A DNA stretch of 64,000 nt from the NCBI GenBank assembly GCA_051313645.2, contig JBNRSN020000002.1, forward strand, positions 390,848,001 through 390,912,000, given 5' to 3'. Numbering within the stretch: position 1 is the first letter of the stretch; each line of letters begins with the position of its first letter. Positions 6,174 through 48,711 of the stretch are shown piece after piece. This stretch comes from Centroscyllium fabricii (lineage: Eukaryota). The notes under the pieces are model-generated. The model was not told the origin of the DNA. It saw only the letters and a list, made by a program, of their open reading frames with translations, and did not search any database. The position numbers were made by a program, and so were the translations under genes.

Positions 6174-6296
6174 ATAGAGTTATACAGCACAGAAAGAGGC
6201 CCTTCGACCCATCGTGTCTGCACCGGCCATCAAGCCCTGTCTATTCTAATCCCATTTTCTAGTACTTGGTCCGTAGCCTTTTATGCTACACTATAG
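6174..6296 (-). mobile_element. 3' tail of the long CR1 LINE split by Gypsy-1
   Basis: CR1-type tail (gaggcccttcgacccatc…) that continues at 10729 once the LTR element and one ATAG TSD are removed. Confidence 0.75.
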
Positions 6297-6534
6297 TGTG
6301 GCGGCACACCAAGACTGGCGAAGCCGCCTCGGGAGTCTGCGGGGCATAGCCCCGCCCACCGGGTGACGCGATGACGTCACCACGTCTCTCGGCGTGATGA
6401 GGTCACTAAAGCGGGCTGTTTAAATAAGCCTGCTCCTCATGGTTCAGTCTCTTTCTTGTACAGTAATGTAATTAAACGAGTGTTTTCTGTCTCTCTGGCT
6501 CTTGCGTGGTTCTTGGGTCCTGCAATCACTACAG

Positions 6535-6547
6535 TGGTGACCCCGAC
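6535..6547 (+). promoter_or_regulatory. Primer-binding site, tRNA-Trp type
   Basis: TGGTGACCCCGAC lies 1 nt after the 5' LTR and matches the known Trp PBS TGGTGACCCCGACGTGAT over 13 nt. Confidence 0.85.
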
Positions 6548-6623
6548 TTGGAACGACTTCCAAGGAAAAACAGCAGCTACAGGACTAAAAATCAAGCAGC
6601 CTCAGAACACTTTAAAAGGCAAC

Positions 6624-9600
6624 ATGTCTTCAAGGAACCAAGCTTCTCGAACACAAGGACTTGGCCAGAACTTCGGGCACAGACTTACCCTACCGGAGTT
6701 CTGGGAGCAACACCTGGCGGCCTGGTTTATGTGCATAGAAACCAGCTGCCGCACACATGGCATCCAGGGGGACGACCGCTACGACCTGGTCTTTTCGGCC
6801 CTACCGCAATCGACGATCGATCGGATGTGGTCGAAGCTACAGCGCGTGCCCGCAGCAGGCAGGTATGAGTTCCTCAAGGCCGCGCTTCTTAAAAAATTCA
6901 CCCCCTCCCAATTCGAGCGCGACTGCCAGCTCCTTAACCTCCCCGAACTCGGGGACGCAGACCCATCGGACTTTTGGGGACAAATGCAAGCGCTCACCGC
7001 CGATCCCGCCTCCCTGTTCCGCACCATATTCCTCCTCAAACTACCCCGCTCCATCAGACCGGCCCTGGCGGCCCTCTGCCACCGGAGCGGGGACGAGCTA
7101 GCCGAGGAAGCCGACAGGCTCATGGCGGCCGAGCGCACCCGCTCCACCACGTGCGACCTTAATGCCGCAGCTATCGAGCACAACCACTCGCCCCCCAGGT
7201 CCAACCCAACGCCTGAACCCAGGCCCCCGCGCCCTCCCAGGCAACCGCGTCCACCTAGCACCGGCTGGTGCTACTACCACACGCGGTTCGACTCTAAAGC
7301 GCACCGCTGCGTACAGCCCTGCACATTTAAGCCACGGCCCGGCCCAGCCCCCACTATGTCTGTAGGACACACCGGAGCACTGCTCTACCTCACAGACAGC
7401 GGCACAGGCCTCCGGTTCCTCTGCGACACAGGCGCGCAGCACAGCATCGTGCCAGCCTCCCCAGCAGAAGCCAAAAAAGGCACCCGGGGCCCGCCACTCG
7501 CGGCCAACGGCTCTGATATTAAGACGTACGGCACCCGCAAGCTCACAATCAAGCTTGCCGGCCACACGTATCACTGGGACTTTGTCACGGCCCAGGTCAC
7601 TTCACCCCTCCTCGGGGCAGATTTCCTCTGCGCCCACGGCCTCCTGATCGACATGACCCGTCGTCGCCTGGTTGACATTCACAACATGTCGACCATCCCA
7701 TACTCCACAGGGTCCGCACTCCTGGCCCACGCGGCGGCACAATGCCGCGCCCGGAACTCTGACGCATACGGCACGCTCCTCGCAGAGTTCCCAACCCTTA
7801 CCAACCCCACCTTCACCGCCCGCACGGCCAAACACGGGGTGGAACATTTTATCACCACCTCCGGCCCTCCCGTGCATGCCCACGCCCGCAGGCTGGACCC
7901 GGCCAAGCTGGAGATTGCGCGCACCGAGTTCCGCCCCATGGAGCAACTCGGCATAATCGGCCGCTCCAACAGCCCCTGGGCCTCTCCCCTCCACATCGCC
8001 CCCAAGCCGGGCGGAGGCTGGCGCCCCTGCGGCGACTACCGCCGCCTCAACAATGCCACCACCCCGGATAGGTACCCCGTACCCCACATCCAGGATTTCT
8101 CCGCCAGGCTAGCAGGCTGCACGATCTTCTCTAAGATCGACCTGGTGCGTGGCTACCACCAGGTCCCGGTGCACCCGGTGGATGTCCCCAAGACAGCCGT
8201 CATTACCCCCTTCGGCCTCTTCGAGTTCCTTGGGATGCCCTTTGGACTCAAAAACACGGCCCAGGCCTTTCAGCGCCTAATGGACTCGGTCCTACGGGAC
8301 TTGCAGTTCATTTTCGTCTACTTGGACGACATCCTCGTGGCCAGCACCTCCCCCCAGGAGCACCTCCTGCACCTCAGGACCCTGTTCCAGCGCCTGACCG
8401 AACACGGCCTCATATTAAGCCCCTCTAAATGTAAATTCGGCCTCGAGACCATAGACTTCCTCGGCCACCGCATTTCCAAAACCGGGGCCATACCCCTGTC
8501 CTCCAAGGTGCAGGCAGTTCAGGAATTCCCCCGCCTGCACTCCATTAAGGGGCTGCAGGAATTCCTCGGGATGGTTAATTTCTATAACCGCTTCATCCCA
8601 GGAGCAGCCGCTCTCATGGCCCCCCTATACCAGGCCACACGCGGGCAGTCCGGCAAAACTGCGGTCGAGTGGACGGCCGACGCCGCCACCGCCTTCACCG
8701 CAACCAAAACCGCTCTAGCCAACGCCACCCTCCTAGCCCACCCCAGGCCCAACGCCAGAGTGGCCCTCACCACCGACGCCTCCGACCACGCTGTCGGGGC
8801 CATTTTTGAACAGTGGACCGGCAACTCTTGGCAGCCCCTGGCCTTTTTCAGCCGACAACTCCGGCCCCCAGAGGTTAAGTACAGCACCTTCGACAGGGAG
8901 CTCCTCGCCCTCTACCTCGCAGTGCGCCATTTTCGCTTCCTCCTGGAGGGCCGTCCCTTCACAGCGTTCGTCGATCACAAGCCGCTCATTTTTGCAATGG
9001 CTAAGATCGCCGAACCCTGGTCGGCCAGGCAGCAGCGCCAACTCGCAGCCGTGTCGGAGTTCACTACCGACATCCAACATATCTCCGGCCGCGACAACGT
9101 GGTTGCTGACTGCCAGTCACGTCCCGCAATTAACGCCGCCCAAATGGCAGTCGATTACGCCAAGCTGGCAGCAGACCAGCTGGCCGTCCCAGACCTGCTC
9201 GACCCAGCAGGAAACCTCCCTGGCCTACGCTTGGCCAAAATCCCACATGGCCCCGCGGCCACCGTAGTCTGCTGCGACGTTTCTTTACCGCAGCCCAGAC
9301 CTGTCGTCCCCCACGCATGGAGGCGACACATTTTCGAGACCCTCCATGGCCTGTCCCACCCCGGCACCCGCGCTTCCATCAAACTAATTTCGGCCCGTTT
9401 CGTGTGGCGCGGCCTGCGCAAAGACGTCCGCGCCTGGACCAATTCCTGCATTGCCTGCCAGCGCGCCAAGGTGCACAAGCACATCAGGGCACCACTGGAA
9501 ACTTTCACCGTGCCGGCCAGACGCTTCGACCACGTCCATGTCGATCTCGTCGGACCACTACCGCCATCCCGGGGCCACACACACGTCATGACCATGGTCG

Positions 9601-9818
9601 ACCGCAACACTCGCTGGCCAGAAGCAGTCCCCCTCGTTGCTACCAGCACCACGGACTTGGCCAGGGCGTTCATCGCCACCTGGGTCGCCCGTTTCGGCGT
9701 GCCCACCGACATCACATCGGACAAAGGTCCCCAATTTACGTCGGCACTATGGGCGGCCATCGCCCGCGACCTCGGGGTAACCCTACATCGAATCACCGCA
9801 TACCACCCACAATCTTAA
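6624..9818 (+). CDS. Gypsy-1 Gag-Pol polyprotein (Gag-PR-RT-RNaseH-IN), frameshifted in the integrase
   Basis: Motifs: WCYYH-RF-KAHRC knuckle, protease LCDTGA, RT YLDD, RNase H TDAS…DRELLA, integrase H-H-C-C and VHVDLVGP…TSDKGPQF. The C-terminus continues in 9847-10450 (GPY motif) after frameshifts. Confidence 0.9.
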
Positions 9819-10728
9819 CGGGCTCTGCGAACGGTTCCACCGCTCCATGAAAGCATCCCTGCGGGCCAGCCTCAAAGACGCATCATGGACCGACCGTCTT
9901 CCGTGGGTACTGCTCGGGCTGCGCTCGGCAGCCAAAGAAGATCGACACGCCTCAGCAGCAGAACTCGTCTATGGCCAAACTTTAACAGTGCCGGGCGAGT
10001 TCCTCGCCGAACCAAACGCTCCCTGGTCGGCCGACCAACCAGTTCCTAAAGGACTTCGGCAACCCGGCACGAGCGTTCAAACCCGTACCGGTGGCCCGGC
10101 ACGGAGAGCCGGCAGCACGTGTACCGGACGGCATCAAAAACGCCAAGTACGTGTTTGTCCGGCATGATGCCCATCGCTCGCCACTACAGCCAACTTACGA
10201 CGGCCCATACAGAGTGCTTCGGGCGGGACCAAAAGCTTTTCAGTTACAGCTGGGCAACCAGACAGAAACTGTCTCTATAGACCGGCTAAAACCGGCACAC
10301 GTTATAGCGGGCGACGCAACAGTCCCCGCCCAACCACCTCAACGCGGACGCCCTCCCGCACCAACACCCGCCCACACTCCACCGCAGAACAAGGAGCAAC
10401 GCACGACACGTGCCGGACGCATCTTACGGCCACTACAACGCCTCACATAGACTCTTTCTCCTCTCGAACGGATTCTGGGGGGAGCTGTGTGGCGGCACAC
10501 CAAGACTGGCGAATCCGCCTCGGGAGTCTGCGGGGCATAGCCCCGCCCACCGGGTGACGCAATGACGTCACCACGTCTCTCGGCGTGATGAGGTCACTAA
10601 AGCGGGCTGTTTAAATAAGCCTGCTCCTCGTGGTTCAGTCTCTTTCTTGTACAGTAATGTAATTAAACGAGTGTTTTCTGTCTCTCTGGCTCTTGTGTGG
10701 TACTTGGGTCCTGCAAGCGCTACAATAG

Positions 10729-14855: not shown

Positions 14856-15356
14856 TGTAATGATGTGATGTATGATGTATGCACTATCGGGGGCTGGTGG
14901 ACGCGCTTTACGGCTGCAGTAAAGACACCAGCCTCTGAGTATAAAAGGAAGCCATCTTGACCACATGGTCAGAGTGCACAGAGCAGGCAATGAATTGAGA
15001 CCTCATTAAAGTACAGGAGTGAATCTCATCTCATGTGGCTCTCAGTAATTTACTGTTGTGAGAAACCTGTATTTACCACTGTATATAATGTCTGCACCAG
15101 TAATGACCTGACGGCATTACTGGACATATACCTGTACATATCTGTATATACCTGACGGCAGGAACTGCCCCACCTCTAACTCCTCCCCTCAGGTCGGAGT
15201 ACATAGGCGGTTGCTCACCAACCCCCATTCATTCACCGCCCTGAGCTCAGCCAAAGACCAGCTCTGTTTTATAGTTAATAAAAGCCTTTAGTTGAGGTAA
15301 CTATTCGTCTTTGCGTATTATTAACGATACGTCAACTGTAAGATAGTAACATTACA
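14856..15356 (+). mobile_element. Solo LTR hosting a nested solo LTR
   Basis: TGTAATG…CATTACA termini with 5-bp TSD ATTCT (14851-14855, 15357-15361). TATAAAA at about 14940. Confidence 0.8.
15057..15334 (+). mobile_element. Nested solo LTR related to the Gypsy-2 LTR family
   Basis: TG…GATACGTCA ends, TSD ACTGT (15052-15056, 15335-15339), an AATAAAAGCC signal, and similarity to the reverse complement of 26086-26366. Confidence 0.8.
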
Positions 15357-20333: not shown

Positions 20334-20628
20334 TGTGGTAAACCACTCTTTGTATATATATATATATGTGTGTATATTACTGTAACCTACTGTAATCACC
20401 TTTAACCATGTTGTATAATAGTTCTCTGTGTGTGGTTGCCTGGACATGCCCATGCTGGCCCCGCCTGTGACTCCTCCCTCCCAGGACCAGGTACATAAGT
20501 GGCCGTCTCCCTTCCCCCAGCCATTCCTGGGGACGGTCGACTAGCTGGTGCATGTCCACCTTTAGCTAATAAAAGCCGATTGTTTCACCTCTTAATATCT
20601 CGTCTCCGAGGTCGTTAATTCGGTAACA
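20334..20628 (+). mobile_element. Solo LTR (TGTGGTAA-start group)
   Basis: TGTGGTAAACC…GGTAACA with TSD GAGTG on both sides and AATAAAAGCC at about 20568. Confidence 0.85.
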
Positions 20629-26079: not shown

Positions 26080-26085
26080 CTGGAC

Positions 26086-29000
26086 TGACGTATCGTCAAT
26101 AATACAAAGACGAGTAGTTACCTTAACTATAGGCTTTTAATAACTTAAAGATGGAGCTAGTCTCCAGTTGAACATCGAGTACAGAATGAATGGGGGCAGG
26201 GCAGACCTCACCTATAAGGCTCTCACCTGAGGGGAGGAGTCAGAGGTGTGGCTGACCTGACCTCACGACAGTGTTCTATACAATACCCCATACAATACAC
26301 CCAGCCACTACACACACTGGTCTGTGGTGTAACCCAACTATATACAATGGTAATATGATTACCACATTCACCCCTTCTTTGAAAATGAGTCCGGCAGGGT
26401 GAATGGAACAGAACCGATCAGTGCAACAAAAAAAATTATGTGTCCGTATCAGCAGTTCTCAATGAGTCTCTCCGGTGGTCGCGTCTGCCATGAAGACCGC
26501 CGGGGTTCCGGTAGTGGCGCTGGTGCCGGTTGTGGTGACGGGGTCGGGTCCTCCGGCAACCGTGCCTGCGGTGTGGCGTCCGGGCCTGGGTCATCAGCCG
26601 ATAGTGTCGGGGGCCCCGGTGTGTGCGTGTGTGTAGGCCAGTATTCGGTGGATGGTGGTCGGTATGCAGGCCAGTGTTCGGTCGGCGGTGGATGGTCGGG
26701 CTGAGGCTCGACCAGGGGGTCTGCTCTAGTGCTCCCGGCGGGCGCTATGTCTCTGATGGAAACTGTATCCTCGCGCCCGTCCGGGAACTGCACATAGGCA
26801 TACTGCGGGTTGGCGTGCAGCAGCTGCACCTTTTCCACCAGGGGGTCGGTCTTATGGCCGCGGACATGTTTTCTAAGTAAGACCGGCCCCGGCGTCGTGA
26901 GCCACGGTGGGAGTGCCGTCCCCGAAGTCGACTTCCTGGGGAAGGAAAATAATAGATCATGAGGTGTGGCGTTTGTAGCCGTACACAGCAGAGAGCGGAT
27001 GGAGTGGAGCGCATCTGGGAGGACTACCTGCCAACGGGACACTGGAAGGCCTCTGGACTTCAGGGCCAGGGTGACCACCTTCCAGATGATCCCGTTCTCC
27101 CTTTCTACCTGGCGGTTCCCCCGGGGGTTATAACTGGTCGTCCTGCTTGAGGCAACCCCTTTCTGAAGCAGAAACTGACGCAGTTCGTCGCTCATGAACG
27201 ACGACCCCCGGTCGCTATGGATGTAGCTGGGGAGACCGAAAATGGCGAACAGCATGGTGAAGTGTCTTATCACCGTTGCGCTCGTCATATCTGGGCAGGG
27301 AAAGGCGAAGGGGAAGCGGGAGAACTCGTCCACGACCGTGAGGAAGTACGAGTTGCGGTCGGTGGAGGGGAGGGGGCCTTTGAAGTCCACGCTCAGACGT
27401 TCAAAGGGGCGGGTGGCCTTGATGAGGTGCGCCGTGTCTGGCCTGTAAAATTGAGGTTTGCACTCGGCGCAAACAGGGCACTCTCGGGTCATAGCCTTGA
27501 TCTCCGTGATGGAGTAGGGGAGGCTACGGGATTTTACGAAATGGGCGAGTCTGGTGATACCTTTCTGGCAGAGGCGATCGTGGAGTTCCTTCAGCCGGTC
27601 CAGCTGGGCACTGGCGCACGTTCCCCTGGACAGTGCGTCCGGGGGTTCGTTGAGTTTGCCTGGTCGGTAAAGAATGTCGTACTCGTAAGTCGAGAGCTCG
27701 ATCCGCCACCGCAGGATCTTATCATTCTTGATTTTACCCTTTTGTTTATTGTTAAACATAAACGCAACCGACCGTTGGTCGGTGAGCAGGGTAAAACGCT
27801 TACCGGCCAGGTAATGACCCCAGTAGCGCACGGCCTCCACGATGGCCTGGGCCTCCTTTTCCACTGCAGAGTGGCGAGTTTCGGGTGCCTGTAGGGTGCG
27901 GGAGAAGAACGCTACGGGCCTGCCTGCCTGGTTCAGGGTGGCGGCAAGGGCAAAGTCCGAAGCGTCACTCTCCACATGGAAAGGGATGGACTCATCAACG
28001 GCGTGCATGGTCGCCTTGATGATGTCTTCCTTAATCAGGGCGAACGCCGTTTGGGCTTCTACTGAAAGGGGGAAGACGTCTGCCTTGAGGAGCGTTCTGG
28101 CCTTATCCGCGAACTGGGGGACCCATTGTGCGTAATAGGAGAAAAATCGCAGACATCTCCTCAGGGCTTTGGGGTTGTGAGGTAAGGGCAGTTCCTGTAA
28201 GGGGCGCTACGCTGTGGGTCGGGGCCGAGGACCCCGTTTTCCACCACGTATCAGAGGATGGCGAGCCGATCTGTACTAAAGACGCACTTGTCTTTATTGT
28301 AAGTGAGATCGAGCCGTTTCGCCGTGTGGAGAAAATTGGCGAGGTTGGCATCGTGGTCCTGCTGGTCATGGCCGCAGATGGTCAGGTTGTCCAGGTAGGG
28401 GAAGGTGGCCTGCAACCCGTTCTGGTCAAACATACGGTCCATCTCCCTTTGGAATACCGACACTCCGTTGGTCATGCCGAAGGGGACCCGGAGGAAGTGG
28501 TAGAGCCGACCGTTCGCCTCGAAGGCGGTGTACTGGCGGTCGACTTTCCGGATTGGGAGTTGGTGATACGCCGACTTAAGGTCGATTGTTGAAAAAACCT
28601 TATACTGGGCGATCTGGTTAACCATGGCCGAGATGCGGGGGAGGGGGTAGGCGTCGCGCCCGGTGTAGCGGTTAATAGTCTGACTGTAATCGATCACCAT
28701 CCGTAGTTTCTCGCCGGTCTTAACCACTACAACCTGGGCCCGCCAGCGGCTGGTGCTGGCCTCAATTATCCGCTCCTGCAGCATACGCCCGACCTCCGAC
28801 CTGATAAATGCCCGGTCCCCCGCACTGTAGCGCCGACTCTTGGTAGCAATGGGTTTGCAGTTAGGGTCGAGGTTGGCGAACAGCGAGGGGGGGCCGACTT
28901 TCAGGGTGGATAGGCCGCAAGTCGGGCTCCGCTTTAGGAAGGGATTGTCCCGGCTACTGACTGCGAGGGGGGCCAGGGTCCCGCCGAACTCCATTGTCAC

Positions 29001-30987
29001 GCTCTTCAGGTGGCACTGGAAATCCAGTCCCAGTAAGACTGGGGCGCACAACTGTTGGAGGATGTACAATTTAAAATTGCGGTACACGCAGTCCCTGACC
29101 ATGAGTGTGACGGAGCAGTAGCTGGTGACATCCGCCGTGTGGGACTTTGAAGCAAGGGAGATTTGGTAGTGCGTGGGCAGGCTCCGCAGTGCGTAGCGCC
29201 GCACTGTGTCGGGGTGGATGAAGCTCTCTGTGCTTCCGGTGTCGAACAGGCAGTTGGTGATGTGACCGTCAACTTTAATACCCATCATGGAATTTGATAG
29301 GGTGTGCGGCCTAGCCTGGTCAAAATGTCTGTGTGTGTGTGTGTGGGGGCCCTCCGCTAGCTGGGGCCGTGCACAAGCTGCCGGCGCCCGTGGTTCACAC
29401 GCGGCCGACCGCGGTGGACAAGATGGCGGCGCCGGATGGTCGCACATGGCTGGCCGTTGAGGACAAGATGGCGGCGCCGGGGAGTCACAAGATGGCAGCG
29501 CTGGGGAGTCGCACATGGCTGGCCGCTGAAGACAAGATTGCGGCGCCGTGGAGTCGCACATGGCTGGCTGCTGAAGACAAGATGGCGGCGCCCGTGATTC
29601 GCACGCGGCGGACCGCGGTCGATGAGATGGCGGTGCCCGTGGTTCGCACGCGGCGGACTGCGGTCGCCGAGGTGGCGGCGCCCGTGATTCGCACGCAGCG
29701 GACCGCGCTGGGCGAGGTGCCGGCGTTGGGGGGGTCGCCTATGGCCGGCCGCAGCCGTCTTTGGCGTGGCAGTGCCCGTGCCGTGTACGCGGCCGGCCTC
29801 TGCCGTACAGAGATGGGAGACGGAGGCGCCTGTGATCTACCCCCGGACCGCTGCTGGGTCGCGCGGCAACAGCAGCTTACCTTAGGCCATGGGATAACGT
29901 TGGAACTCTCGCAGGCCGCGCTGTGGTATCTGGAGCTGGGGCCGATTTGCAGGCCCTGGTGTAGTGTCCTTTCTTGCCACATCTCTCACAGGTCGCGTTC
30001 CTCGCGGGGCATTTCGCTCACGGGTACTGACCCTGGCCGCAGAAGTAGCATCTTCGTTCCGACGGCGTCTTCGCAGCTGCCGCTGCCTTTGTGAGGTTCT
30101 CGACCTGTCGTGGGGTCGCCCAGGGATCGAGAGTGTCGTGTGGGCCTTGGCCGCCATACGCCTCTAGCCGGCGGCGCGCTCCGTCCACTGCGTTAGAGAT
30201 GGAGATCGCCTCCTCCAGTGATAGTGTCCTTTTCCAACAACCGCTGACGGGCCTGGTTGGACCTAATCCCAGTCACGTAGGCATCTCGAACGAGGAGATT
30301 CGTCTCCTCCTGCGCCGTTCGTGGCTGCCAGTCACAGGCCCGAGTGAGGGCTTGGAGCGCTAACAGATATTGTTCATTCGACTCACTGAGCCGCTGTTGT
30401 CTGGTCGCCAGCACGTGTCTGGCATAGACCGAGTGGACCGGGCGCACGTAGCATTCCTTCAGTTTCTCCACGGCCTCTGGGTACGTTGTGATGCCGCAAT
30501 GAAGGAGTACACCCGGCTGCTGATCCTGGACGAGAGGACGTGTAGTTTGTCCCCGTCGGTCGTCGCCTTAGCGGCCGCCATGTAGTCCTCAACAAGGCTG
30601 AACCAATGTTCAAAAGTGTTGCCGGCGTCTGGTTCTTGAGGATTGATATCCAACTTTTCGGGTTTCACAGCGCCGCTCTCCATTTCGAAAATTAAGTTAT
30701 TAAAATTGACGTATCGTCAATAATACAAAGACGACTGGTTACCTTAACTATAGGCTTTTAATAACTTAAAGATGGAGCTAGTCTCCAGTTGAACATCGAG
30801 TACAGAATGAATGGGGGCAGGGCAGACCTCACCTATAAGGCTCTCACCTGAGGGGAGGAGTCAGAGGTGTGGCTGACCTGACCTCACGACAGTGTTCTAT
30901 ACAATACCCCATACAATACACCAAGCCACTATACACACTGGTCTGTGGTGTAACCCAACTATATACAATGGTAATATGATTACCACA
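26086..30987 (-). mobile_element. Gypsy-2: full-length Ty3/Gypsy LTR retrotransposon without a tRNA PBS
   Basis: 281-bp LTRs at 26086-26366 and 30707-30987 (about 4 differences), TSD TGGAC, PPT AAAGAAGGGGTGAA at 26367-26380 (minus strand). Gag starts MESGAVKPEKL at 30683. Confidence 0.95.
26449..29561 (-). pseudogene. Gypsy-2 pol (PR-RT-RNaseH-IN), frameshifted
   Basis: ORF 28251-29561 has LFDTGS protease and YLDN RT motifs. ORF 26449-28008 has SDASD RNase H and VDFKGP…HSDRG integrase motifs. Confidence 0.9.
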
Positions 30988-31099
30988 TGGACACCCTCTA
31001 CTAAAAATGCATTTCAGTTGTATTACTAAAATTGCACCAGGTTACCACCCTTAAAAACATCAAGAAATCCTTTTTAATGGAAAGAAAAGAACAATTGTT

Positions 31100-34266: not shown

Positions 34267-37200
34267 TGTAATGTTATTTAAAGATCAGACGGGAGGCCAA
34301 CACTAAGTTTCAACGGAGCTTTTTTAATCAGGTCTTATACACTACCACTCCAATCATCGACTGAAGCATGGCTAAGATGGCGTTGGCTCCCGCCACTTGG
34401 GCGTGACGTCAGACGTAAGTCAAGCCTGTGCTGTCTTTACGTCAGTCACAGCTATCCTTTCATCTCCCCCCTTCAGGGAGTACATTGTACATAACACTTA
34501 ATTGTAATAACTCAATAAACACAACATATTTACAATAATATACACAGTCATTGTGACTTTCCATAGGAGCCCTTTTCGATTTTAAATATGTGATCACACC
34601 TCTTGACATGGTGCTAGACAACAGGGCTATCTCTGGGTAATTTGAATAGTAATCGATGACTAACAAATAGTCCTTTCCCCCAAAATGGAACATATCTGTT
34701 CACACATTTTCCCACGGGTGGTTTGGAATTTCTGTGGTGATGAGGGGCTCCTTAGTCTGTTTGTATTGATATTCCTGGCACGTGGCACACTTACTTATTA
34801 ATGGATCAATGTCCGCATTCATATTTGGCCAGTACAGTGCCTCGTGCCCACCTTTGGGATTTTTCTGCCCCCAGGTGCCCTTCGTGTATCCTCCCCAGCA
34901 TCTCTGGTCTCATGGAGGTGGGCACCACTATTCTGTCCCCCTTGAGTAGGATTCCGTTTACCACAGATAGTTCACCTTGTATCTGATAGTATTGCTTGCA
35001 GGATCCTCTCTTCCAGCCCTCCTGCAGGTTTTTCATTACTTTTTTTAGTACTGGATCCTTTGCTGTTTCATTTGTTATCACTGCCAACTGTTGTGGTGAA
35101 GCTGGCAGTGCTGCGTAGACCATGTCTACATGGAGATTCACGTCCTCCTCTGTGTCACTGTTTTACGTGGCACATGGTGCAGCTTTCGACAGTGCATCCG
35201 TAATGTACATTTGTGTCCCTGGCACATATGTCAGATCAAAATCATAACGTTGAAGTCTCATCATCAAGTGTTGTATTCTTGGCGACATGTCGCATAAATT
35301 TTTCTTTATAATTCCTAACAGTGGCTTATGGTCTGTTTCCAGTATAAATTTTGGTAGTCCATAGACATATGTGTGAAATTTTTCGCACCCAAATGCCAAA
35401 CCCAGACATTCTTTTTCAATCTGTGCATACCTGCACTCTGTGGCCGTCATAGAACGTGACGCATATGCCGCCGGCCTCCATTCTCCGTCATCTTGTAGTA
35501 GGACTGCCCCGAGCCCATTCTTGGATGCATCGGTCGACACTTTGGTCCTTTTTTTTGGACAAAAGAATTTTAATAGGGGTTCACTTGCCAAGATCTGTAA
35601 TAGTCCCTTCCATTCCTGCTCATGCTGGTGTCCCCATTGGAACTCTGTTTCATGTTGCAGCAGCTTTCTCAGGTGCTCAGATTTTGTGGCTAGATTCGGG
35701 ATAAATTTCCCTCGATAGTTCACCATGCCAAGGGCCCTCTGCACCTCTTTTTTGTCTTCAGGCTTTTCCATGTCCTGAATTGCTTTAATCTTAGTCTTGT
35801 CTGGCTGTACCCTCTCTGTGGAGATCTTGTCTCCCAGGAAAGTTATCTCCTTTACTCTAAATTGGCATTTATCTATATTTAATTTAAGTCCATATTGCTG
35901 TATCGTCTGGAGCGTTTTTTCCAGCCTGCAGTCGTGCTCCTTCTGTGTGTAGCCCCATACCACCAGGTCATCCACATACACCCGCACCCCTTCCAAGCCC
36001 TCTATAATTGTTTCCATCACTCTGTGGAATATTTCTAGGGCTGAGCTTCTGCCAAATGGCAGATGCTGGTATGAGTATCTACCAAACAGGGTGTTAAATG
36101 TACACAGCTTGGCACTTTCCTCATCCAATTTCAGTTGTCAAAATCCATGGGAGGCATCCATTTTTGAAAAGAATGTTGCCTCTGTCATCTCACTCACTAT
36201 TTCTTCTCTTTTGGTAATTTAATAGTGTCCTCTCTTTATATTGGCGTTAAGGTCCTTGGGGTCCATGCATACCCTCAATTTATCATTGCTTTTTGAGTTG
36301 AGGCGGACCATTTAATTCACCCAATCGGTTGGCTGATCAATTTTTTTAATAACAGCCAGTCCTTCCATGCAATCCAGCTCTTTCCTCAGCTTCTCGCGGA
36401 GGGTCACTGGCACTCTCCGGGGTGCATGTATAACCGTTTGTGCATTGTCCCTTAATTTAATAGAGTATGTGAAGGGCAGCGCTCCAAACCCTTGAAATAC
36501 ATCCGCGTATCTTTGCACAATATTGTCTGAATTCATGTCCGAATTTTCTCGCAGGTCATTTTGTGTTTCATTTCCTCCATTGACTGTGTAAAATCTTTTT
36601 ACTAGACCTAAATCCACGCAGGCCTTATTTCCTAATAGTGATTCATGCCCTTCTGGCACTATAACAAAAGTGAGGAAGTGCCTATGCTGTTTTACTATCT
36701 GCCTCAATCTGCACATTCCTCTTGTCTCGATGCTTTGGCCATTGTAAGCCTTTAAAGACACAGCCCTGTTTATCATCTTAGGTTTCACTTTGAGTTTTGT
36801 TTACATCACCGCAACTTATCAAGTTCGCTTTTGCCCCTGTATCCAGCTTAAAGGGGATTATCATTCCATTTACTTGCAGGGGAGCTATCCAGGCCTCCTT
36901 GTTCGGCCCTCTGGACTGTGCGTCTTGCTGCACCATTCCCACATACCATGATTGAGCTCCCGCTTCTGCAGTCTCTACTGCGTGCACTGCCTTTTTACTT
37001 TCACCTCTTTGCTCCCAAAAGCACATTTTCGCAAAGTGATTTCTGCCTTTGCATTTCGCGCAGCTCTTCCCAAACGCAGGACACTGCCTGGCCCCATGTT
37101 TGTTTCCACACCGTTTGCACTCGAATGCCGCCATTTTGTTGTACTCACTGGGCCCTCTGGGCTCTCTGATATCATACGCCACCATTTCGTTGTACTCACT

Positions 37201-38323
37201 GAGCCCTCTAGGCTCTCTTGAGTCGTGAAACACCATTTTGTTATATTCTGTGGGCCCTCGTGGCACTCTGTAATCTGTTCACTGTATTCATAATTAATAA
37301 TTCAACTTTTATTGTCATTATACAATGTACAAGTACATGAACAACGAAATGTGATCTTGCAAGCTCCCAAGAGTCCAGCAAAGCCGCTGCGTCTGTGCGC
37401 GCCGCCATTCCATCTTTCCTTCATTCCGACAATCTTCAGCCAACCGCCCCTCCCCGGGGCTCCTTTCGTGACCTTGTGCACCTGGTATTCCCTGGTGGTC
37501 ACCCCTCCAAGTACTAACCAGGCCTGGCTCTGCTTAGCTTCCAAGCCTTGCCAGTGACCCTGTCCCTAGTCCCAGGAACATCCACCGGAAGGCTCTACGG
37601 CCCCAGGACGTTCCCCTCGAACGTTTTTGTTTGCATTGCTGAAAGCTCACTCATATGGCAAAGCTTTACTGCAGCACCCAATTTCAACTCGCTGTCTCTC
37701 AGCATTCTTTCTCTTAATTTCTTATCCAATATTCCAAAGACTATTTGATCCCTTATCATCGATTCTTTTAAATCTTGAAAATTGCACGACTGTGCTTTGA
37801 TTTTTAAATCGGTTAGAAAGACATCGAAGGACTCCCCTTGTTTTTGTGTTCTGTAGTGGAACACAAACCTTTCATCGGTTTCATTGTTTCACGCGCAAAA
37901 ATCTTCACTTTTTTTATAACTTTGTCAAAGTCACTTTTTTCTTCCTCGGATTCAAAAGTAAAGGTATTGAACAGCTCGCTTGCCTGCAAGCCCGCAACAG
38001 TTAGTAATAGTTCAACTTTACGTGATCCTGAGCTTGTAGCTGCCTTGATGGCTGTCAGGTATAGGAGACATCTCTGCTTGAATACTCGCCAATTCTCGTC
38101 AACGTTGCCTTCTAGTTGAGGATTGGCTGGGGGCTTAATACCTTCCATCATTCATCGTCAGTCTGTTTGTAAGTTCGTTACTCCTGGTACCATGTAATGT
38201 TATTTAAAGATCAGACGGGAGTCCAACACTAAGTTTCAATGGAGCTTCTTTAATCAGGTCTTATACACTGCCACTCCAAGCCTCAACTAAAGCATGGCTA
38301 AGATGGCGTCGGCTCCCGCCACA
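34267..38323 (-). mobile_element. Gypsy-3: decayed Ty3/Gypsy retrotransposon, PBS-Leu
   Basis: LTR copies start at 34267 and 38193 (the latter internally deleted). TSD GGCAG. PBS TGGTACCAGGAGT at 38180-38192 (minus strand). ORFs show the CKRCGNKH…CP…CAKCKGRNH knuckle, KLDTGA, YVDD, TDAS…IEKECL and integrase remnants. Confidence 0.9.
37297..37611 (-). mobile_element. 5S rRNA-derived SINE (SINE3-like) inserted in Gypsy-3 gag
   Basis: Minus strand at about 37484-37542 reads GGAAGCTAAGCAGAGCCAGGCCTGGTTAGTACTTGGAGGGGTGACCACCAGGGAATACC, matching the 5S internal control region. The 3' end is AATGACAATAAAAGTTGAATT. The 5' boundary is uncertain. Confidence 0.75.
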
Positions 38324-40995: not shown

Positions 40996-43900
40996 GTATT
41001 ATGTCTGACATTGGTGATAGGTACTTGACTGCCTTGGCCTGTAACAGTTAGTTGGATCGAGCATTAAAACGACTCGAGTTGAGTTCTACATGCTGTCATC
41101 GAGTGATCCCTGCAAATGCAACATTTGGCGACGAGAATGGCTGAAATCTCTCTTCCACCACCTCCTCCCTTCTTTGCACTACTCGGTGAGCCCCCGATCC
41201 CATGGGTTCGCTGGTTATAGTCCTTTGAAACCTACCTCACGCTCTCGGACTAGAAAATGTGAGTGCAGCACGGAAAAGGGCACTGTTATCCCATTGCTGG
41301 GGAGCGGAGGGCCGGCGTGTTCTTGGGACATTATGGACAGCAGACTTAATACGAACATATGATATGGCTGCGGCTCTGTTAAGCACACACTTCTCTGCCC
41401 CAAAAAGTGCCCTCCTCCGGCGATTAAATTTTAGACAACGTCACCAACTCCCCGGCGAGTCTGTGCATCAGTACGCAGCTGATTTGAGGGGGTTAGCTAG
41501 CTTGTGCAAGTTCAGTGCACTACAAGACGAGATGGTGCGTGGTCAACTAATAGAGCACACCAACATTGTGAGAGTGCGTGAAAGACTGTTACTCGAGTCC
41601 GATGATCTGTTGTTGTCACAGGCAGTTAACATTGCCTTTCAAGTGGACGCTGCAGCCTAATGTGTAGCGAGGCTGGCGGGACATCCAGTGAGCGGCTTCT
41701 CCAGTGCCCCCTTCCACTCTGAATTCTCACACATGGTTCAGCCACACACACCAAGTGACCGCACCCTCGGCACCGACAACTCTGACACTGTAATGCTTGC
41801 GCGACTGCAACAACGCGTGCTACCGCGGCAACAGTGTGGAAACTGTGGATCTCGTTCACCTGCCACCAAAGTGCAGAATTGCCCCCCGCGCGGCCAAGCC
41901 TGTCGCAATTGTGGAAAACAAAATCACTTTGCCAAGATCTGCCACTCTGCCCCTGTTGCTACAAATGAACATTCTCAGTCCTCAAGCACCATAATTCACA
42001 ACATGAACTCTGGGACAGTAGTGGCTTTCAAGTCATGCACAGTGAACTTGAATGATGTATGCATTCCTGTGTTGTTGGATACCGGTGCCAGTGTCTCACT
42101 GCTGAATGTGGACACATTCAAACAATTATTCAGCTCCCTGCCACTTTCTGCGCCCTCCGCTGCCCTCTGCGGGTATGGTAATTCAAAAATTGACCTAGTG
42201 GGCTCAGTCAACCTCACTGTACGCTACGGAACAAAAGTTTTGCCAGATTTTTGTTTTCATGTGGCACGCCAAGGAGCTAACCTGATGGGACTGGATCGTT
42301 TCACTGACCTGGGTTTTTCTCTCTTGGACAACGGCGGATCTGCGATTCTGCACGTTGCCTCACCGTGGCGCCAAACATGGCCAGCACTCTTCGAGGGTCT
42401 GGGCTGCCTGAGTGCCTTCACCCACCAGCGCATGGTTGACTCCACCGATACCCCTGTCATTCAGCCACTGCGCCGCATCCCGCTTGCTCTCCGTGACGGG
42501 ATCAAAGCTGAACTAAAGCAGCTATTGAAAGGTGGCATCATCGAACCAGTTGATGCCTCCCCATGGGTCTCCAACCTGGTGGTCGCAAAGAAAAAGTCAG
42601 GTGGTCTACACGTCTGTGTCGACCTTCGAGCAGCAAATAAGGCCATAATCCCTGATGAATATCCACTGCTTACGTCAGAGGAACTCACAGCGCAGTTCTA
42701 TGGCTCCATCCTGTTCTCGAAGCTGGACCTTCGACAGGGCTATCTACAGGTGTCCCTCCACCCCAGCAGCAGGGACCTCACTGCTTTTGTGACACATGCT
42801 GGCGTCTTTCAGTACACCAGGATGCCATTTGGACTTGGCTCTGCACCCAGCTGCTTCCAAAAGGTGATGTCCTCTGTGCTCGCAGGCATACCTGGGGTGG
42901 CCATCTACCTTGATGATATCATCGTGCATGGGCCCTCGACCTCCACTCACGACGAATGCCTTCACAGATTTTTCGCGGCTCTAGCAAAACACAAGCTCAC
43001 ACTGAATGGCGAAAAGTGTGTCTTTGCTATTTCAGTGATCGAGTTTGTGGGGTTTCAGTTGTCGGCTGACGGTATATCCCCACTCCAGTCAAACGTGGAC
43101 ACCATTCACAGCATCCCGGAACCCAGCTCTGCAGCACAGGTTGCCTCCTTCCTTGGCATGACTGGGTACTACATGACCCAGTACTCAGCCACCACAGCCC
43201 CACTGCGCCAGCTCCTGCGAAAAGATGAGCCCTGGGTGTGGTCACAAGCCTGTACGGAAGCCGTACGTCTCCTCAAATCGCAGCTCACGTCGCCTCCAGT
43301 GTTGGCTCACTTTGACGTCGTCAGCCCCACACTCGTCTCCTGCGATGCGTCCGCTGCAGCTGTGGGGGCAGTGTTATCACAGATACAGAATGGAGTGGAG
43401 AAACCAATCGCCTTTGCCTCCTGAGCCCTTAGCCCCACTGAACAGAAGTACTCAGTAGGTGAGCGTGAGGCGCTGGTGTGCGTCTGGGCATGTGAGCGTT
43501 GGCACCTGTACACGTATGGCCGTGCCTTCACCCTGCGAACCAATCATCAGGCTCTCACTGCCCTGCTGTCGACATCCAGCAAGGGCCACAGACCACTGCG
43601 TCTACACCGCTGGTCTGGCCGCCTCCGCCAATACAATTTCAGTCTCCAGTTCACGCCAGGACATGACAATGTTGTTGCAGATCTGCTCTCCTGCACTGTC
43701 ACTGCCCCAGCCCCACTCGTCGGTTTTGAACATGTGGAACAGCATATCGTACAGATGCTGCACATGCCTCTCCAAACCACAGTCTCTCTTCAGGAGCTCA
43801 AAAAGGCCTCTGAACAGGATCTGGCCCTCTCCCAGCTGTGCATCTTCATCAGAGATGGCTGGCCTCGTAAGGTGCCTGAGGAACTGTCTGCCTACTCCAG

Positions 43901-44051
43901 AGTTAAAGAGGAGCTCTCCTGCTGGAATGACTCCTGTGTAGCACGTGGGCTCTGCACTGTGGTCCCAAATGCCCTTCATGCACGTGTTTTTTCCATGGTG
44001 CACGAGGGGCACTTGGGCATAGTGAAGCTCAAACAACGATGCCGAGACCTA

Positions 44052-44837
44052 GGGGGGGAATTTCATGTCCCCGTGAGGTGGGGTTTTCGGTGGCTCGGCC
44101 GGCAAAATAGCGCAACCAGTGGGTTGTGACCCCACCCCCCGCCGGATCCCCGCTGCTTTATCATTTTCCCCCGCCCTGATTTCCCACCCCGAAACCTTGC
44201 AGCCGGCGGGGATGGGTTGTCACCTCGTTAAGGGCCCTTAATTGGCATGTTTAATGCCATTTTAAGGGCCCTCAGCCATTTTGAGCCGTTTCCCACCCTA
44301 ACCCCATCACCTTAAACCCCGCTGGGTGAAACCCAGCGGGAGGACAGCGCTGGTCATTACTTTCTCCTTCAAGGTGTGAAGGACATGCTGCCAAATGCTT
44401 GGCATGCCTCCAGAACCTTAGAGGAGTAAGTTACTCCATGGTGGCTGCACCAGCTGTGGGCAAAAACTGAGAAGTCTCAGCTTTGCACATTTCCTCACAG
44501 CTGGTGCGAGCTGTCAAGGACTCGGAGCCCACCCGCCCACCTGTCAGTCACCAGCACTTGACCTTTCCCATTGGTTCCACTCGACTGTGATGTCACAGTG
44601 GAGTGTTTCCATGGGAACTGTCAACAACCAGTGCTGGAACTGTCAATCAAGCTCCTCGCAGCCCCGCTGCAGCCTGACTCGATTGAGTCAGTTATCACCT
44701 GCTGCCACCGGCGGGGATTTAACAACTCAATTGAATTAAAATTGCATGGGCTTCCCAGGTCTTTGGGTGGGCAGGACAGGAACCCGCCCCGACCAATCCC
44801 CGCCAGGTTCCCGCACTTCTGGCAAAACCCCCCCCCA
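44052..44837. mobile_element. Harbinger-type MITE inserted in the Gypsy-4 integrase
   Basis: Splits RCRDL|VWWPAIDREIE. Ends are gggggggaatttc…ggcaaaacccccccc. Confidence 0.8.
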
Positions 44838-45591
44838 CAGTGTGGTGGCCGGCTATCGACAGGGAAATCGAGGCCCTGGTCAAGGACTGTGCAATCTGCC
44901 TTGTAAGTGGCAAGACTGGCCACCAAGCTCCTCCACCCCTGCAACCTCTTCCCTCTCCGCCCTGGGAGCACCTGCAGCTGGACGTCTGTGGGGAGATCCA
45001 TGGTGTCCCCCACCATCAACGGTTCCTAGTGGTGACCTATGACCTGCACTCAAAATGGCCAGAGGTCACTGCCGTGGGCTCCGTCACCTCTCGGGTCATC
45101 ATCAATATCCTTGAGTCACTCTTCTCCCTCTGGGGGCATCCAAAGGCCATCACCACAGACAATGGCCCCCAAGTGGTCTCTTTGGAACTCTCCTCCTAAC
45201 TCGAGAGCAAGGGCATCTGTCACATACGCACAGCGTACTACTACCCTGAGTCAAATGGAGGGGTGGAGCGTTTTAACCAGACACTGAAAAATGGCCTCAG
45301 AGCACACCTATCCCAGGGGTGTGCGCTTGACAAGATCCTCTTCCACACACTGCTGCACTACAGAGCCTCCCAGTATTCCACTACAGAGGTCTCCCCCGCA
45401 TCCCTCATGCTAGGCCGTGAGCTCATGCTACCCCTTGACAGGCTCCACCCCTCGCTAGCTCAGAGCCCTGCTCCACGGGCTCAAGCCACAGTGCCAGACA
45501 GCAGGAGAATATGAAACTCCACTTCGACCAGTCCAAAAGGGCCAAGGCGCCCAACATCTCAGTTTCCGATTGGGTCAGAGGCAGGCCCCAC

Positions 45592-45874
45592 TGATGCACA
45601 ATCAATTACAACCAGTCGATGGTTTGATGCAACTGAGGCTCTTATTAGCTTAGAACTGTTACTACAGGTCTAGGCGATCTTCACGGTTAAGGTGAAAGCG
45701 AAAGAGTGTGCATGCAGATTTATACTCAGGTACGTGGGTGAAGCCTGGAAGGGAAGCTGATAGCTGAGTCCTCCCAGACAAGAAGTCACAAACTATATAC
45801 AGGCACTGTAATTTCAAGGAGGAGACACAAGGGGGAGACATTATACAATATATACAATATGGTGGTTTACCACA
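45592..45874 (-). mobile_element. Solo LTR (TGTGGTAA group) inserted in the Gypsy-4 3' region
   Basis: Minus strand TGTGGTAAACC…GCATCA with TSD CCCAC/CTCAC. Confidence 0.75.
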
Positions 45875-47641
45875 CTCACCGCAACAATAAGATGGCCTCA
45901 TTCTGGTCCTCCCCTCTTCAAATCAGCCACCAACTTGGACCAGCCACTTTCTGCCTCACTGACGGCTCTCGGTGGCATGCCAGCCACCTCCGGAAGGTGC
46001 CAGCACCCCCTGATGCAGGATTACACGGATCTCACCCCCAAGCCTTAACCCCAGAGTGGCGGGATGCACATGTGGCTCAACCAGCCAACCCTCAAGCCGA
46101 TAATGTACCTCGGCCTGCTCCTCACCAGTCCCCACCTCGGCCTGCTCCTCGCCAGTCCCCAACTCGGCCTGTTCATACACGTTCTCGCCCTGGCCACCTA
46201 CGGGACTTTGTCACTACATTTCATGTTTGAAATTCTGTGAGGGGGGAGGAAATGTTATGTCTGCACACTGGGTTACAGTGCTGCATTAGAGTTACATGAA
46301 GTTTGATAGTGCTGTTATCGTTATATTATGTCTGACATTAGTGATAGGTACTTCATTGCCTTGGCCTGTAACAGTTAGTTGGATCGAGAATTAAAACGAC
46401 ACGAGTTGAGTTCTACATGATGTCATCGAGTGATCCCTGCAAACGCAACAGTGACCTCGAGCAGCTCTGGCTGTTTAGGGCCCGGCTGCAGACTACTGTC
46501 TTGGCATTATCGGGGCACCTGGCTGTGTGGAAGCAATGAGGGAACTGGTTCAGAGTCTGGCAGGGGAGCAGACGTACAGTCATCTTGAGAGAGGGCAGCA
46601 TGAGCCTCTTCCATGGAGCCAATGCTACTGTCATGAGGCTGCACCTCTACACTCCCACTGCTCTGCATGAGAACAGAGTGAAGGAGTGTAATGATGCTTT
46701 GGAACCCCCTAGCCATGCACTCCACACTCGTATCCATGCTCTCCTTCATTGATTGAAAGCCTGAGGAAATGCTAGACCCCAGAGCCACGATGGCAGCAGT
46801 CTGAGCTCACAGCAATGCTGTCACCAGAAGCTCCATCATTGTGGGTCTCACTGCAGTGTTCATAGAGCTGAACAAATACTCCATGGTTAACTGCTTGATC
46901 TCAATGCCATGCTCGATAATCCCATACAAGTTAGAGCTGGATGCTCTGTGCTATTGTCCGTAAGCTTACTGGCAGGCTGTCCAGTGCATGGATAGTCCTG
47001 GGCTATAATCAGTCTTTTTAATGTCGCCTGTGTCCTTGAAGCCTTCATCTGTTCCTTCTGCAGCAAGGCGAGTCTGTGAGTTTTCCCTTGGGGAAAGCTG
47101 CTTCCTGAGCTGTCTTATTCCCCTGCACATCCTCCTGCATACTAGTGCTCTGATTCTCTCGGTCCAGGCCAACCTAGCCTATCCTGTAAAGAATGTGTCG
47201 TGCCAGTCTCTGAGCTGGTGCATGCTAGGCTACAACTGAACGACACTGTGCCTTCATTGGTGCTGTCTTCTTCCAGCTCCTTGACCCCTGGCACTCTACA
47301 GTTACTTACACTGAAAGTGAAGAGAGGGCCAAGGATTAGCATTTAGTGAAAGCAGCTGCACTTTGTCATGCATGGCGTGCGAGGGTGAGATTTCAGTGAG
47401 AAGGGACAGAGTGTAATATGGCCCAGAACCCTGCAGGATGCAACCTTCAGCCTCACCACTTGCCGCACCCCCATGATCAGCATGAAGTCCCCCTTGACTG
47501 AGGAGAGGACGTTAATGGACACTCTTCCTCTTTTTGTCCTCACCTGCTCGTTGTTATTGCTTGCAAGCTTGTCCTGCAAGAAAGAATGGAGAATTTTATT
47601 GGCAGTCTAGTGAGATGCTTTGAGGATGCGCATGAGAGTTA

Positions 47642-48410: not shown

Positions 48411-48711
48411 TGACGTATCGTCAATAGTCTAATAAACTAAAGACACGTAGTTACCTTAACTAAAGGCTTTTATTAGCTTACAAAGGAGCTACGCTCCGAT
48501 CGAACATCAGGTACAGAATGAATGGGGGCAGGTCAGACCCCCACCTATAAGGCACTCACCTGAGGGGAGGAGTTAGAGGTGTGGCTGACCTGACCCCGCG
48601 ACAGTGTCGCAATACAGAACAGTTGTATCATGCACCCGGCTGCTATACATACAGTGTAATATTGGTGACAATATTAAGGTGGTAATAAGAGTACATATAA
48701 CGGTTACCACA
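48411..48711 (-). mobile_element. Solo LTR of the Gypsy-2 family
   Basis: tgacgtatcgtcaata…taccaca, TSD CAACC, strong similarity to 26086-26366. Confidence 0.9.

Follow-up and report, generated by a model that had tools for sequence, protein, structure and literature searches.

The Ty3/gypsy retrotransposon Gypsy-2, which lies in the 64,000-nt stretch of DNA analysed here (the window), is probably self-primed, with the leading ~53 nt of its own transcript acting as primer for reverse transcription. At the position of a primer binding site (PBS), its leader is a 14-nt exact complement of the poly(A)-signal region of the element's own LTR, and this arrangement is real, clade-wide and most likely a form of self-primed reverse transcription not described before. 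The mechanism that we propose is built on the position and polarity of the complement, on its co-variation among copies and on the end points of aberrant copies. In the portions of the literature available to us, self-priming in Ty3/gypsy elements is treated as a trait of the Tf1/sushi chromoviruses, and the Gypsy-2 clade falls outside that group. No report of a PBS complementary to a poly(A) signal was found in the part of the literature that our search covered, with Repbase Reports, GyDB and most subscription papers lying outside it.

Structure of Gypsy-2 and position of the complement

Gypsy-2 has the properties of a Ty3/gypsy LTR retrotransposon, namely the domain order PR-RT-RH-IN, TG...CA LTRs, a polypurine tract and a short TSD, and the nearest solved RT to its own is that of Ty3. 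Its features are as follows.

30987-26086, minus strand: whole element, 4,902 nt, with LTR pair and 5-bp TSD
30988..30992 (left) and 26081-26085 (right), minus strand: 5-bp TSD, GTCCA on both sides
30707..30987, minus strand: 5' LTR, 281 nt, TG...CA, 4 differences from the 3' LTR
30832..30837, minus strand: TATA-like box in the LTR; similar boxes occur in three related families
30808, minus strand: putative transcription start, an A in initiator-like context 29 nt below the TATA-like box, placed from DNA read-through footprints
30756..30808, minus strand: putative self-primer, the first 53 nt of the RNA, with a predicted 5-bp hairpin at 30787-30773
30756..30769, minus strand: paired 14-nt segment, 3' end at the A-run of ATTAAA (30762-30757); predicted cut at 30756/30755
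30707..30755, minus strand: loop of 49 nt comprising the end of R together with U5; hairpins are predicted at 30755-30741 and at 30735-30713
30692..30705, minus strand: PBS, exact complement of 30769-30756, 1 nt past the LTR end
26452..30683, minus strand: gag-pol, order PR-RT-RH-IN, several frameshifts and stops, RT motif YLDN
26371..26380, minus strand: polypurine tract, 4 nt ahead of the 3' LTR
26086..26366, minus strand: 3' LTR, 281 nt; the poly(A)-signal segment is present as in the 5' LTR, but no complement follows

The TATA-like label at 30832..30837 and the initiator-like label of the A at 30808 follow what we take to be the respective consensus sequences. An array of 45-nt repeats was seen between gag and protease (29327-29734), with 7 overlapping copies of a 114-nt unit.

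Downstream of the LTR-terminal CA we found one A (30706), the 14-mer (30705-30692), 8 nt and then the gag ATG at 30683. An earlier note on this DNA had described the 14-mer as an exact complement of LTR positions 30769-30756, with ATTAAA inside, and we observed the same. The polarity is that of a primer, in that the 3' end of the partner sits one base from the LTR end. About 9e-6 matches would be expected by chance for a 14-nt complement, and none of 3000 shuffles of the LTR reached 11 nt (maximum 10). The duplex is contained in the predicted fold of the inferred RNA from 30808 to 30670 (z = -2.3).

Three more Gypsy elements, with a PBS of the TGG type, are present in the window (6296-10724, 34267-38322 and 40997-46450), and a DUF7041 domain was noted within the long open frame of Gypsy-1. 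The earlier note's distinction between Gypsy-1, -3 and -4, which have a TGG-type PBS, and Gypsy-2, which does not, holds: TGG begins 1, 0 and 2 nt past the LTRs of the former, and the longest complements in these three neighbours, by the measure that gives 14 nt for Gypsy-2, are 8, 4 and 4 nt. A TGG site was seen in 0 of 30 close Gypsy-2 copies, nor did any of the gag-linked copies examined from Gypsy-2 and the solo-LTR families described below have a normal TGG PBS. Decay, which the earlier note thought an unlikely source of the missing TGG, is ruled out by the LTR pair (4 differences in 281 sites) together with co-variation of the duplex in 90 copies. With regard to a tRNA or other small RNA as partner of the leader, a search of the region with the Rfam models yielded zero tRNA-like matches. 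Pairing of the PBS with an internal tRNA fragment, of the half-tRNA type, appears unlikely from the sequences, since more than 10 co-varying PBS sequences argue against it.

Co-variation of the leader and the LTR segment

The Gypsy-2 family has at least 10,267 members in the 7.2-Gb host genome, as judged from matches across the genome to a pattern anchored only outside the duplex. For analysis of co-variation we used 90 of the first 100 matches listed, all of them from one contig and again anchored outside the duplex. If the leader and the LTR segment are partners, as the earlier note proposed, they should change in concert, and this we observed at columns 6, 8, 9 and 13. Column 6 was A-T in 45 copies and T-A in 43; column 8 was G-C in 60, T-A in 26 and C-G in 2; column 9 was T-A in 86 and C-G in 3; and column 13 was A-T in 59, T-A in 21 and C-G in 6. 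All 13 scored positions were paired in 67 copies, 12 in 22 copies and 11 in 1 copy, for a mean pairing of 12.73 vs 11.31 with permuted partners (maximum 11.64 in 2000 permutations). Position 15 was paired in just 3 of the 90 copies, so that the 14-nt boundary is sharp. Against strict pairing stand the 23 copies with at least one unpaired position among the 13, for which post-insertion mutation would be the expected cause, and the rare-variant events, which numbered 24 and of which 5 were mirrored in the partner segment and 19 were not. On trees made from flanking sequence, we counted 7-8 LTR changes and 9-10 joint changes for column 6, numbers that are indicative only, being from fast trees of recombining copies.

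Similar relationships were observed in the families of three solo LTRs of the window, which carry AATAAAAGCC at the site equivalent to ATTAAA, as the earlier note had reported.

15057..15334, plus strand: solo LTR with 5-bp TSD, from a sister family; a matching leader is present in full copies elsewhere
20334..20628, plus strand: solo LTR with 5-bp TSD, from a less closely related family (its gag shares ~40% identity with clade proteins); most read-through copies (below) stem from this family
48411..48711, minus strand: solo LTR of a sister family, 5-bp TSD; full copies have a 13-nt matching leader

The leader was the exact complement of the copy's own LTR variant in 8 of 10 gag-linked copies of the 48411 family, in 7 of 10 of the 15057 family (gag starts identified by eye) and in 10 of 15 of the 20334 family (copies gathered by pattern search).

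Relatives in other hosts

Protein relatives of the clade were found in sharks, rays, a coral, insects and a nematode, the closest being those of sharks and rays, from which the host genome is probably that of a cartilaginous fish; a scan of viral contigs gave zero relatives. We examined 16 foreign loci, on metagenome and MAG contigs, of which 7 could be scored and 9 had no readable LTR-gag junction. A duplex at the same offset was present in 6 of the 7 scorable loci; in the remaining locus with a gag start, L074, the anchored duplex was looked for and was absent. These six duplexes have 9-15 exact pairs, or up to 17 with one mismatch allowed, and represent 5 families (L071 and L073 being one family), with RTs 43-68% identical to that of Gypsy-2. 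The upstream hairpin predicted at 30787-30773 in Gypsy-2 was not evident in the foreign elements. Clade retrotransposons on contigs of bacterial MAGs (L069-L075, proteins P0013 and P0076) are named as bacterial integrases, and the L069-L075 contigs are probably mis-binned animal host DNA, that is, contamination.

The geometry of the PBS was the same in 14 of 14 representatives, drawn from 4 families of the host genome and 6 foreign elements: the offset is 1 nt, and the 3' end of the primer would coincide with the last A of the hexamer. The hexamer was AATAAA, ATTAAA or AGTAAA in all 14, and no other variation was seen in the 90 copies. As far as sequence can tell, this constancy suggests separate selection for poly(A) function.

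Placement of the clade, and sushi-like elements of the same genome

The earlier note had asked where the RT of Gypsy-2 stands in relation to Tf1/sushi. In an RT tree built with no named reference RTs, the 28 clade rows formed one long branch (100/99) apart from 5 chromovirus-like rows, and the best tree united the latter with the tRNA-primed Gypsy-1 (99/92). Rows L181, L183 and L188 of this tree, labelled 'sushi', are nested Gypsy-2-clade elements, and L185, L186 and L067 had no usable RT. An AU test in which all self-primers were constrained together, performed on reduced rows (without these six and some other rows), did not reject the constraint (p-AU 0.068). Neither a chromodomain nor an SH3_Tf2-1 domain was detected in Gypsy-2 or in any of the 10 clade proteins scanned; the control L177 gave an SH3_Tf2-1 match with E 6e-23 and a weak Chromo match below the cut-off (E 0.023). 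Gypsy-2 would thus be Tf1-like in using its own RNA, yet not a member of the Tf1/sushi group.

A search of the host genome for SH3_Tf2-1 gave 12 regions with sushi-like elements, of which 5 had a readable LTR and PBS (L177, L179, L180, L186 and L188). Each of these has an 11-nt PBS complementary to its own LTR; the matching LTR 11-mer starts ~30 nt after a TATA-like box, with the poly(A) hexamer ~80 nt downstream of it. Judged from these sequences, the geometry of the sushi-like elements is that of Tf1-type self-priming. No fold-back copies of the kind described in the next section were matched in the sushi-like family with a search pattern taken from one old copy only. Motifs of the Gypsy-2 clade were not found in those supplementary files that we could search from PMC6238403 (4 of 5 files) and PMC8556966 (11 of 14 files).

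Read-through and palindromic copies

In one of 20 loci of the 20334-family set (L146), the leader runs on as inverted LTR, not as gag. By pattern search we found 260 such read-through loci for the 20334 family and 64 for that of Gypsy-2, and examined 70 of the former and all 64 of the latter (134 in all, of which 3 of the Gypsy-2-family loci proved to be normal copies). The search patterns needed ~20 nt of complement, so that the sample consists of ends beyond that length. The ends fell largely into two classes, and most of the remaining short ends lie between the PBS and the stop of the first class.

Class 1 copies (24 of 134) stop at the initiator-like A, +/- 1 nt, and beyond it jump to internal sites of the element or to other DNA. 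There were 16 of these among the 70 loci of the 20334 family (13 distinct junctions, rough p 3e-14) and 8 among the 64 of the Gypsy-2 family (5 distinct junctions, rough p 1e-4), with L230, L263, L277 and L289 assigned to the start site by a motif rule where the aligner had them elsewhere. The stop A lies 31 nt (20334 family) or 29 nt (Gypsy-2) below the TATA-like box, 52-53 nt upstream of the hexamer end and 39 nt upstream of the paired segment. At some junctions a cap-templated C is possible, and is indistinguishable there from microhomology.

Class 2 copies (57 of 134; 22 of 70 in the 20334 family and 35 of 64 in the Gypsy-2 family) run to the start of U3. Both ends were intact in 34 of these, 23 with perfect 5-bp TSDs, all different, 4 with one mismatch and 7 with none; the 23 with perfect TSDs are palindromes of ~500 bp. 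Four of the 7 copies that have no TSD extend into the polypurine tract (L272, L292, L302 and L315, with L302 assigned to the past-start class by hand). The remaining 23 class 2 copies are truncated in the left arm, often close to the loop. The palindrome arms are 95-99.5% identical to each other; in all 17 palindromes scored this exceeded the between-copy median, and in 11 of the 17 it at least equalled the best other copy.

One read-through copy of the 20334 family, L213 (G000:C2:25063046-25066072), passes, where the two share a short motif, into the Gypsy-2 family's R/U3 in inverted orientation; this switch suggests that the two families can be co-packaged. A candidate for the poly(A) site itself, the single genome-wide match L413 (G000:C845:26388204-26391237), was rejected, as the LTR resumes ~640 nt later. 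The 3' LTR of L413 contains a LINE-like insertion ~15 nt past the hexamer, and the junction has an A-run that could pass for a poly(A) tail.

A proposed mechanism of self-priming in Gypsy-2

We propose the following scheme. The RNA would start at 30808, and its nucleotides +40 to +53, which end in the A-run of the hexamer, would pair with the PBS over a 50-nt loop. A cut directly behind the A-run, for which the element's RNase H is the probable enzyme if Tf1 is a guide, would leave a 3'-OH one base from the LTR end. The primer of Tf1 is reportedly released by RNase H-dependent cleavage. The loop at 30707..30755 would then serve as template for minus strong-stop DNA; after ~50 nt had been copied, RT would jump to the 3' end of the RNA through a short overlap at the hexamer/poly(A) site. 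Finally, the PBS would be re-copied from the primer during plus-strand synthesis. Re-copying in each cycle would keep the two segments matched, and this would explain their tight co-variation.

Plus-strand synthesis would usually end at 14 nt, and occasional runs to the cap, or fold-back on R, could produce the two aberrant classes. Read on the minus strand, a class 1 junction consists of the RNA sequence from start site to hexamer joined to strong-stop DNA, so that its simplest reading is a ~53-nt primer of which the last 14 nt are paired. For class 2, plus strong-stop DNA would fold back, its 3' end being able to pair with its own R, and then be inserted by integrase at its U3 ends. The earlier note's suggestion of a tRNA-independent route different from that of Tf1 is supported by these footprints, which put the start of the RNA 39 nt ahead of the pairing, and the 14-nt partner most likely forms the 3' terminus of a longer fragment from the 5' part of the RNA. 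Class 1 footprints could also be obtained if a 14-nt plus-strand end mis-primed on the 5' end of a co-packaged RNA; in that event they would fix the RNA start and would not prove that the primer retains the unpaired 39 nt. Support is accordingly better for the start site, and for an origin of the primer in the element, than for the primer's full length.

Among other explanations, a primer supplied in trans survives best, and we consider it unlikely. Here a ~53-nt fragment, derived from the second packaged genome or from short transcripts that solo or 3' LTRs give, would act in the manner of an element-encoded tRNA substitute. The primer copy does differ from the copy's own LTR in some read-throughs (L262 has the other haplotype, and L230 differs at two sites), L213 goes from the primer copy of one family into the inverted R/U3 of the other, and solo LTRs are abundant. 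However, L262 is also explained by an intermolecular first jump, the minimum-energy predicted fold is the cis duplex, and the tight within-copy coupling in 90 copies of mixed haplotype would be easier to maintain in cis.

Read-through ends cluster 39 nt upstream of the pairing, on an initiator-like A that follows the TATA-like box by 29-31 nt. This speaks against plain self-priming of the Tf1 type, in which the RNA would begin at, or be trimmed to, the paired segment and the primer would be just 14 nt long. Moreover, the primer of the sushi-like elements begins at the same spacing from TATA as does the stop A, whereas the paired segment of Gypsy-2 lies ~68 nt below the box. To this reading we give a slim chance, in view of the sharp 14-nt boundary and of the common origin with chromoviruses that the AU test did not reject (p-AU 0.068).

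Retroviruses with a poly(A) signal in R must suppress it. HIV-1 is proposed, in the part of PMC12789967 available to us, to occlude the signal in R with a 5' poly(A) hairpin, a stem-loop that is local and belongs to a tRNA-primed virus, whereas the partner in Gypsy-2 is the PBS, outside the LTR. By this precedent, and from the constant presence of a canonical-type hexamer within the duplex, the Gypsy-2 duplex might be a regulatory hairpin only, with some host-derived RNA as primer. We regard this as very improbable: the complement fills the exact position of a PBS in a leader of ~18-29 nt that has no space for another, a host primer would need to fit more than 10 different sequences, and products consisting of LTR end, A and complement require a plus-strand 3' end at that place. 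A priming duplex that also hides the 5' poly(A) signal, as a side function, is nevertheless plausible; it would form only at the 5' LTR, because the partner is the PBS, outside the LTR, and pairing is possible only at the 5' end. Priming by the 3' terminus of the genomic RNA, set free by a cut in 3' R behind the hexamer and circularising the template, would suit the 4 of 57 long read-throughs that pass U3 into the polypurine tract (L272, L292, L302 and L315), but can yield neither the start-site ends of 24 copies nor the flush U3-start ends of 53, and hardly deserves credence.

Returning to priming by the 5' RNA fragment, we advance a broader proposal with some reserve, rating it a little below an even bet: that a large animal Gypsy clade, that of Gypsy-2, evolved self-priming independently, as a second such system. 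Its primer would be a capped ~53-nt RNA, cut at its own poly(A) signal, an element-made substitute for tRNA with a long unpaired 5' part; one duplex would serve both to prime reverse transcription and to silence the 5' poly(A) site, and strong-stop DNA that folds back would give palindromic mini-elements inserted by integrase.

Comparison with known systems

The Tf1/sushi chromoviruses form a 'pretzel' of two extra duplexes flanking the PBS; predicted folds of the Gypsy-2 clade have hairpins within the loop that vary among families. According to the portions of PMC10085805 and PMC4600332 that we consulted, Tf1/Tf2 of S. pombe, Tj1, Tosmo and Tf1/sushi elements lack a tRNA site and have a PBS complementary to their own 5' LTR, and the Tf1/sushi primer is an element-derived RNA, the very 5' end of the transcript. 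As stated in the accessible part of PMC11042837, the 3' end of Tf1 cDNA often retains a copy of the PBS. Gypsy-2 resembles these elements in having no tRNA site and a PBS complementary to its own 5' LTR. It differs from them in that pairing involves a segment 39 nt into the inferred RNA that ends on the poly(A) hexamer, the clade's loop is only 30-57 nt, and the clade has neither SH3_Tf2-1 nor the chromodomain that Tf1/sushi elements carry at the integrase C-terminus, and occupies a separate long RT branch.

Self-priming has also been predicted in plants, for TAR-lineage Ty1/copia elements (Houba, Osr-1) and for Tcn1 (PMC6317226, as far as available). TAR elements being copia, self-priming would extend outside the chromoviruses, to which Tcn1 belongs; unlike the case in Gypsy-2, neither is linked to a poly(A) signal in the text of PMC6317226 at our disposal. 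Skipper of Dictyostelium and the fungal GalEa have no TGG site, and unconventional priming has been proposed for them (PMC5006619, PMC5445492); the sections available report for both that the LTR has no complementary segment, whereas that of Gypsy-2 is exact and co-varies.

If the proposed mechanism is correct, tRNA-free priming would be far commoner in animals than described, the Gypsy-2 clade would evade control by tRNA-derived small RNAs, and generation of the primer would be tied to 3'-end processing. The genomic read-through copies would map primer and start site without an RNA experiment, and exact predictions follow for Gypsy-2: the RNA should start at 30808 and be cut at 30756/30755, and the strong-stop DNA should be ~50 nt long.

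Rearranged derivatives of read-through copies

In four copies (L204, L286, L287 and L288) the entire 52-nt primer complement is rejoined to the normal leader or to the gag start. The duplex between LTR and leader is far longer in these copies, and in L204 a second PBS then follows. Short, internally deleted derivatives of read-through junctions were seen as L226, L241, L269 and L271, and also as L190, L191 and L215; some of these are present in several copies, and may be non-autonomous families.
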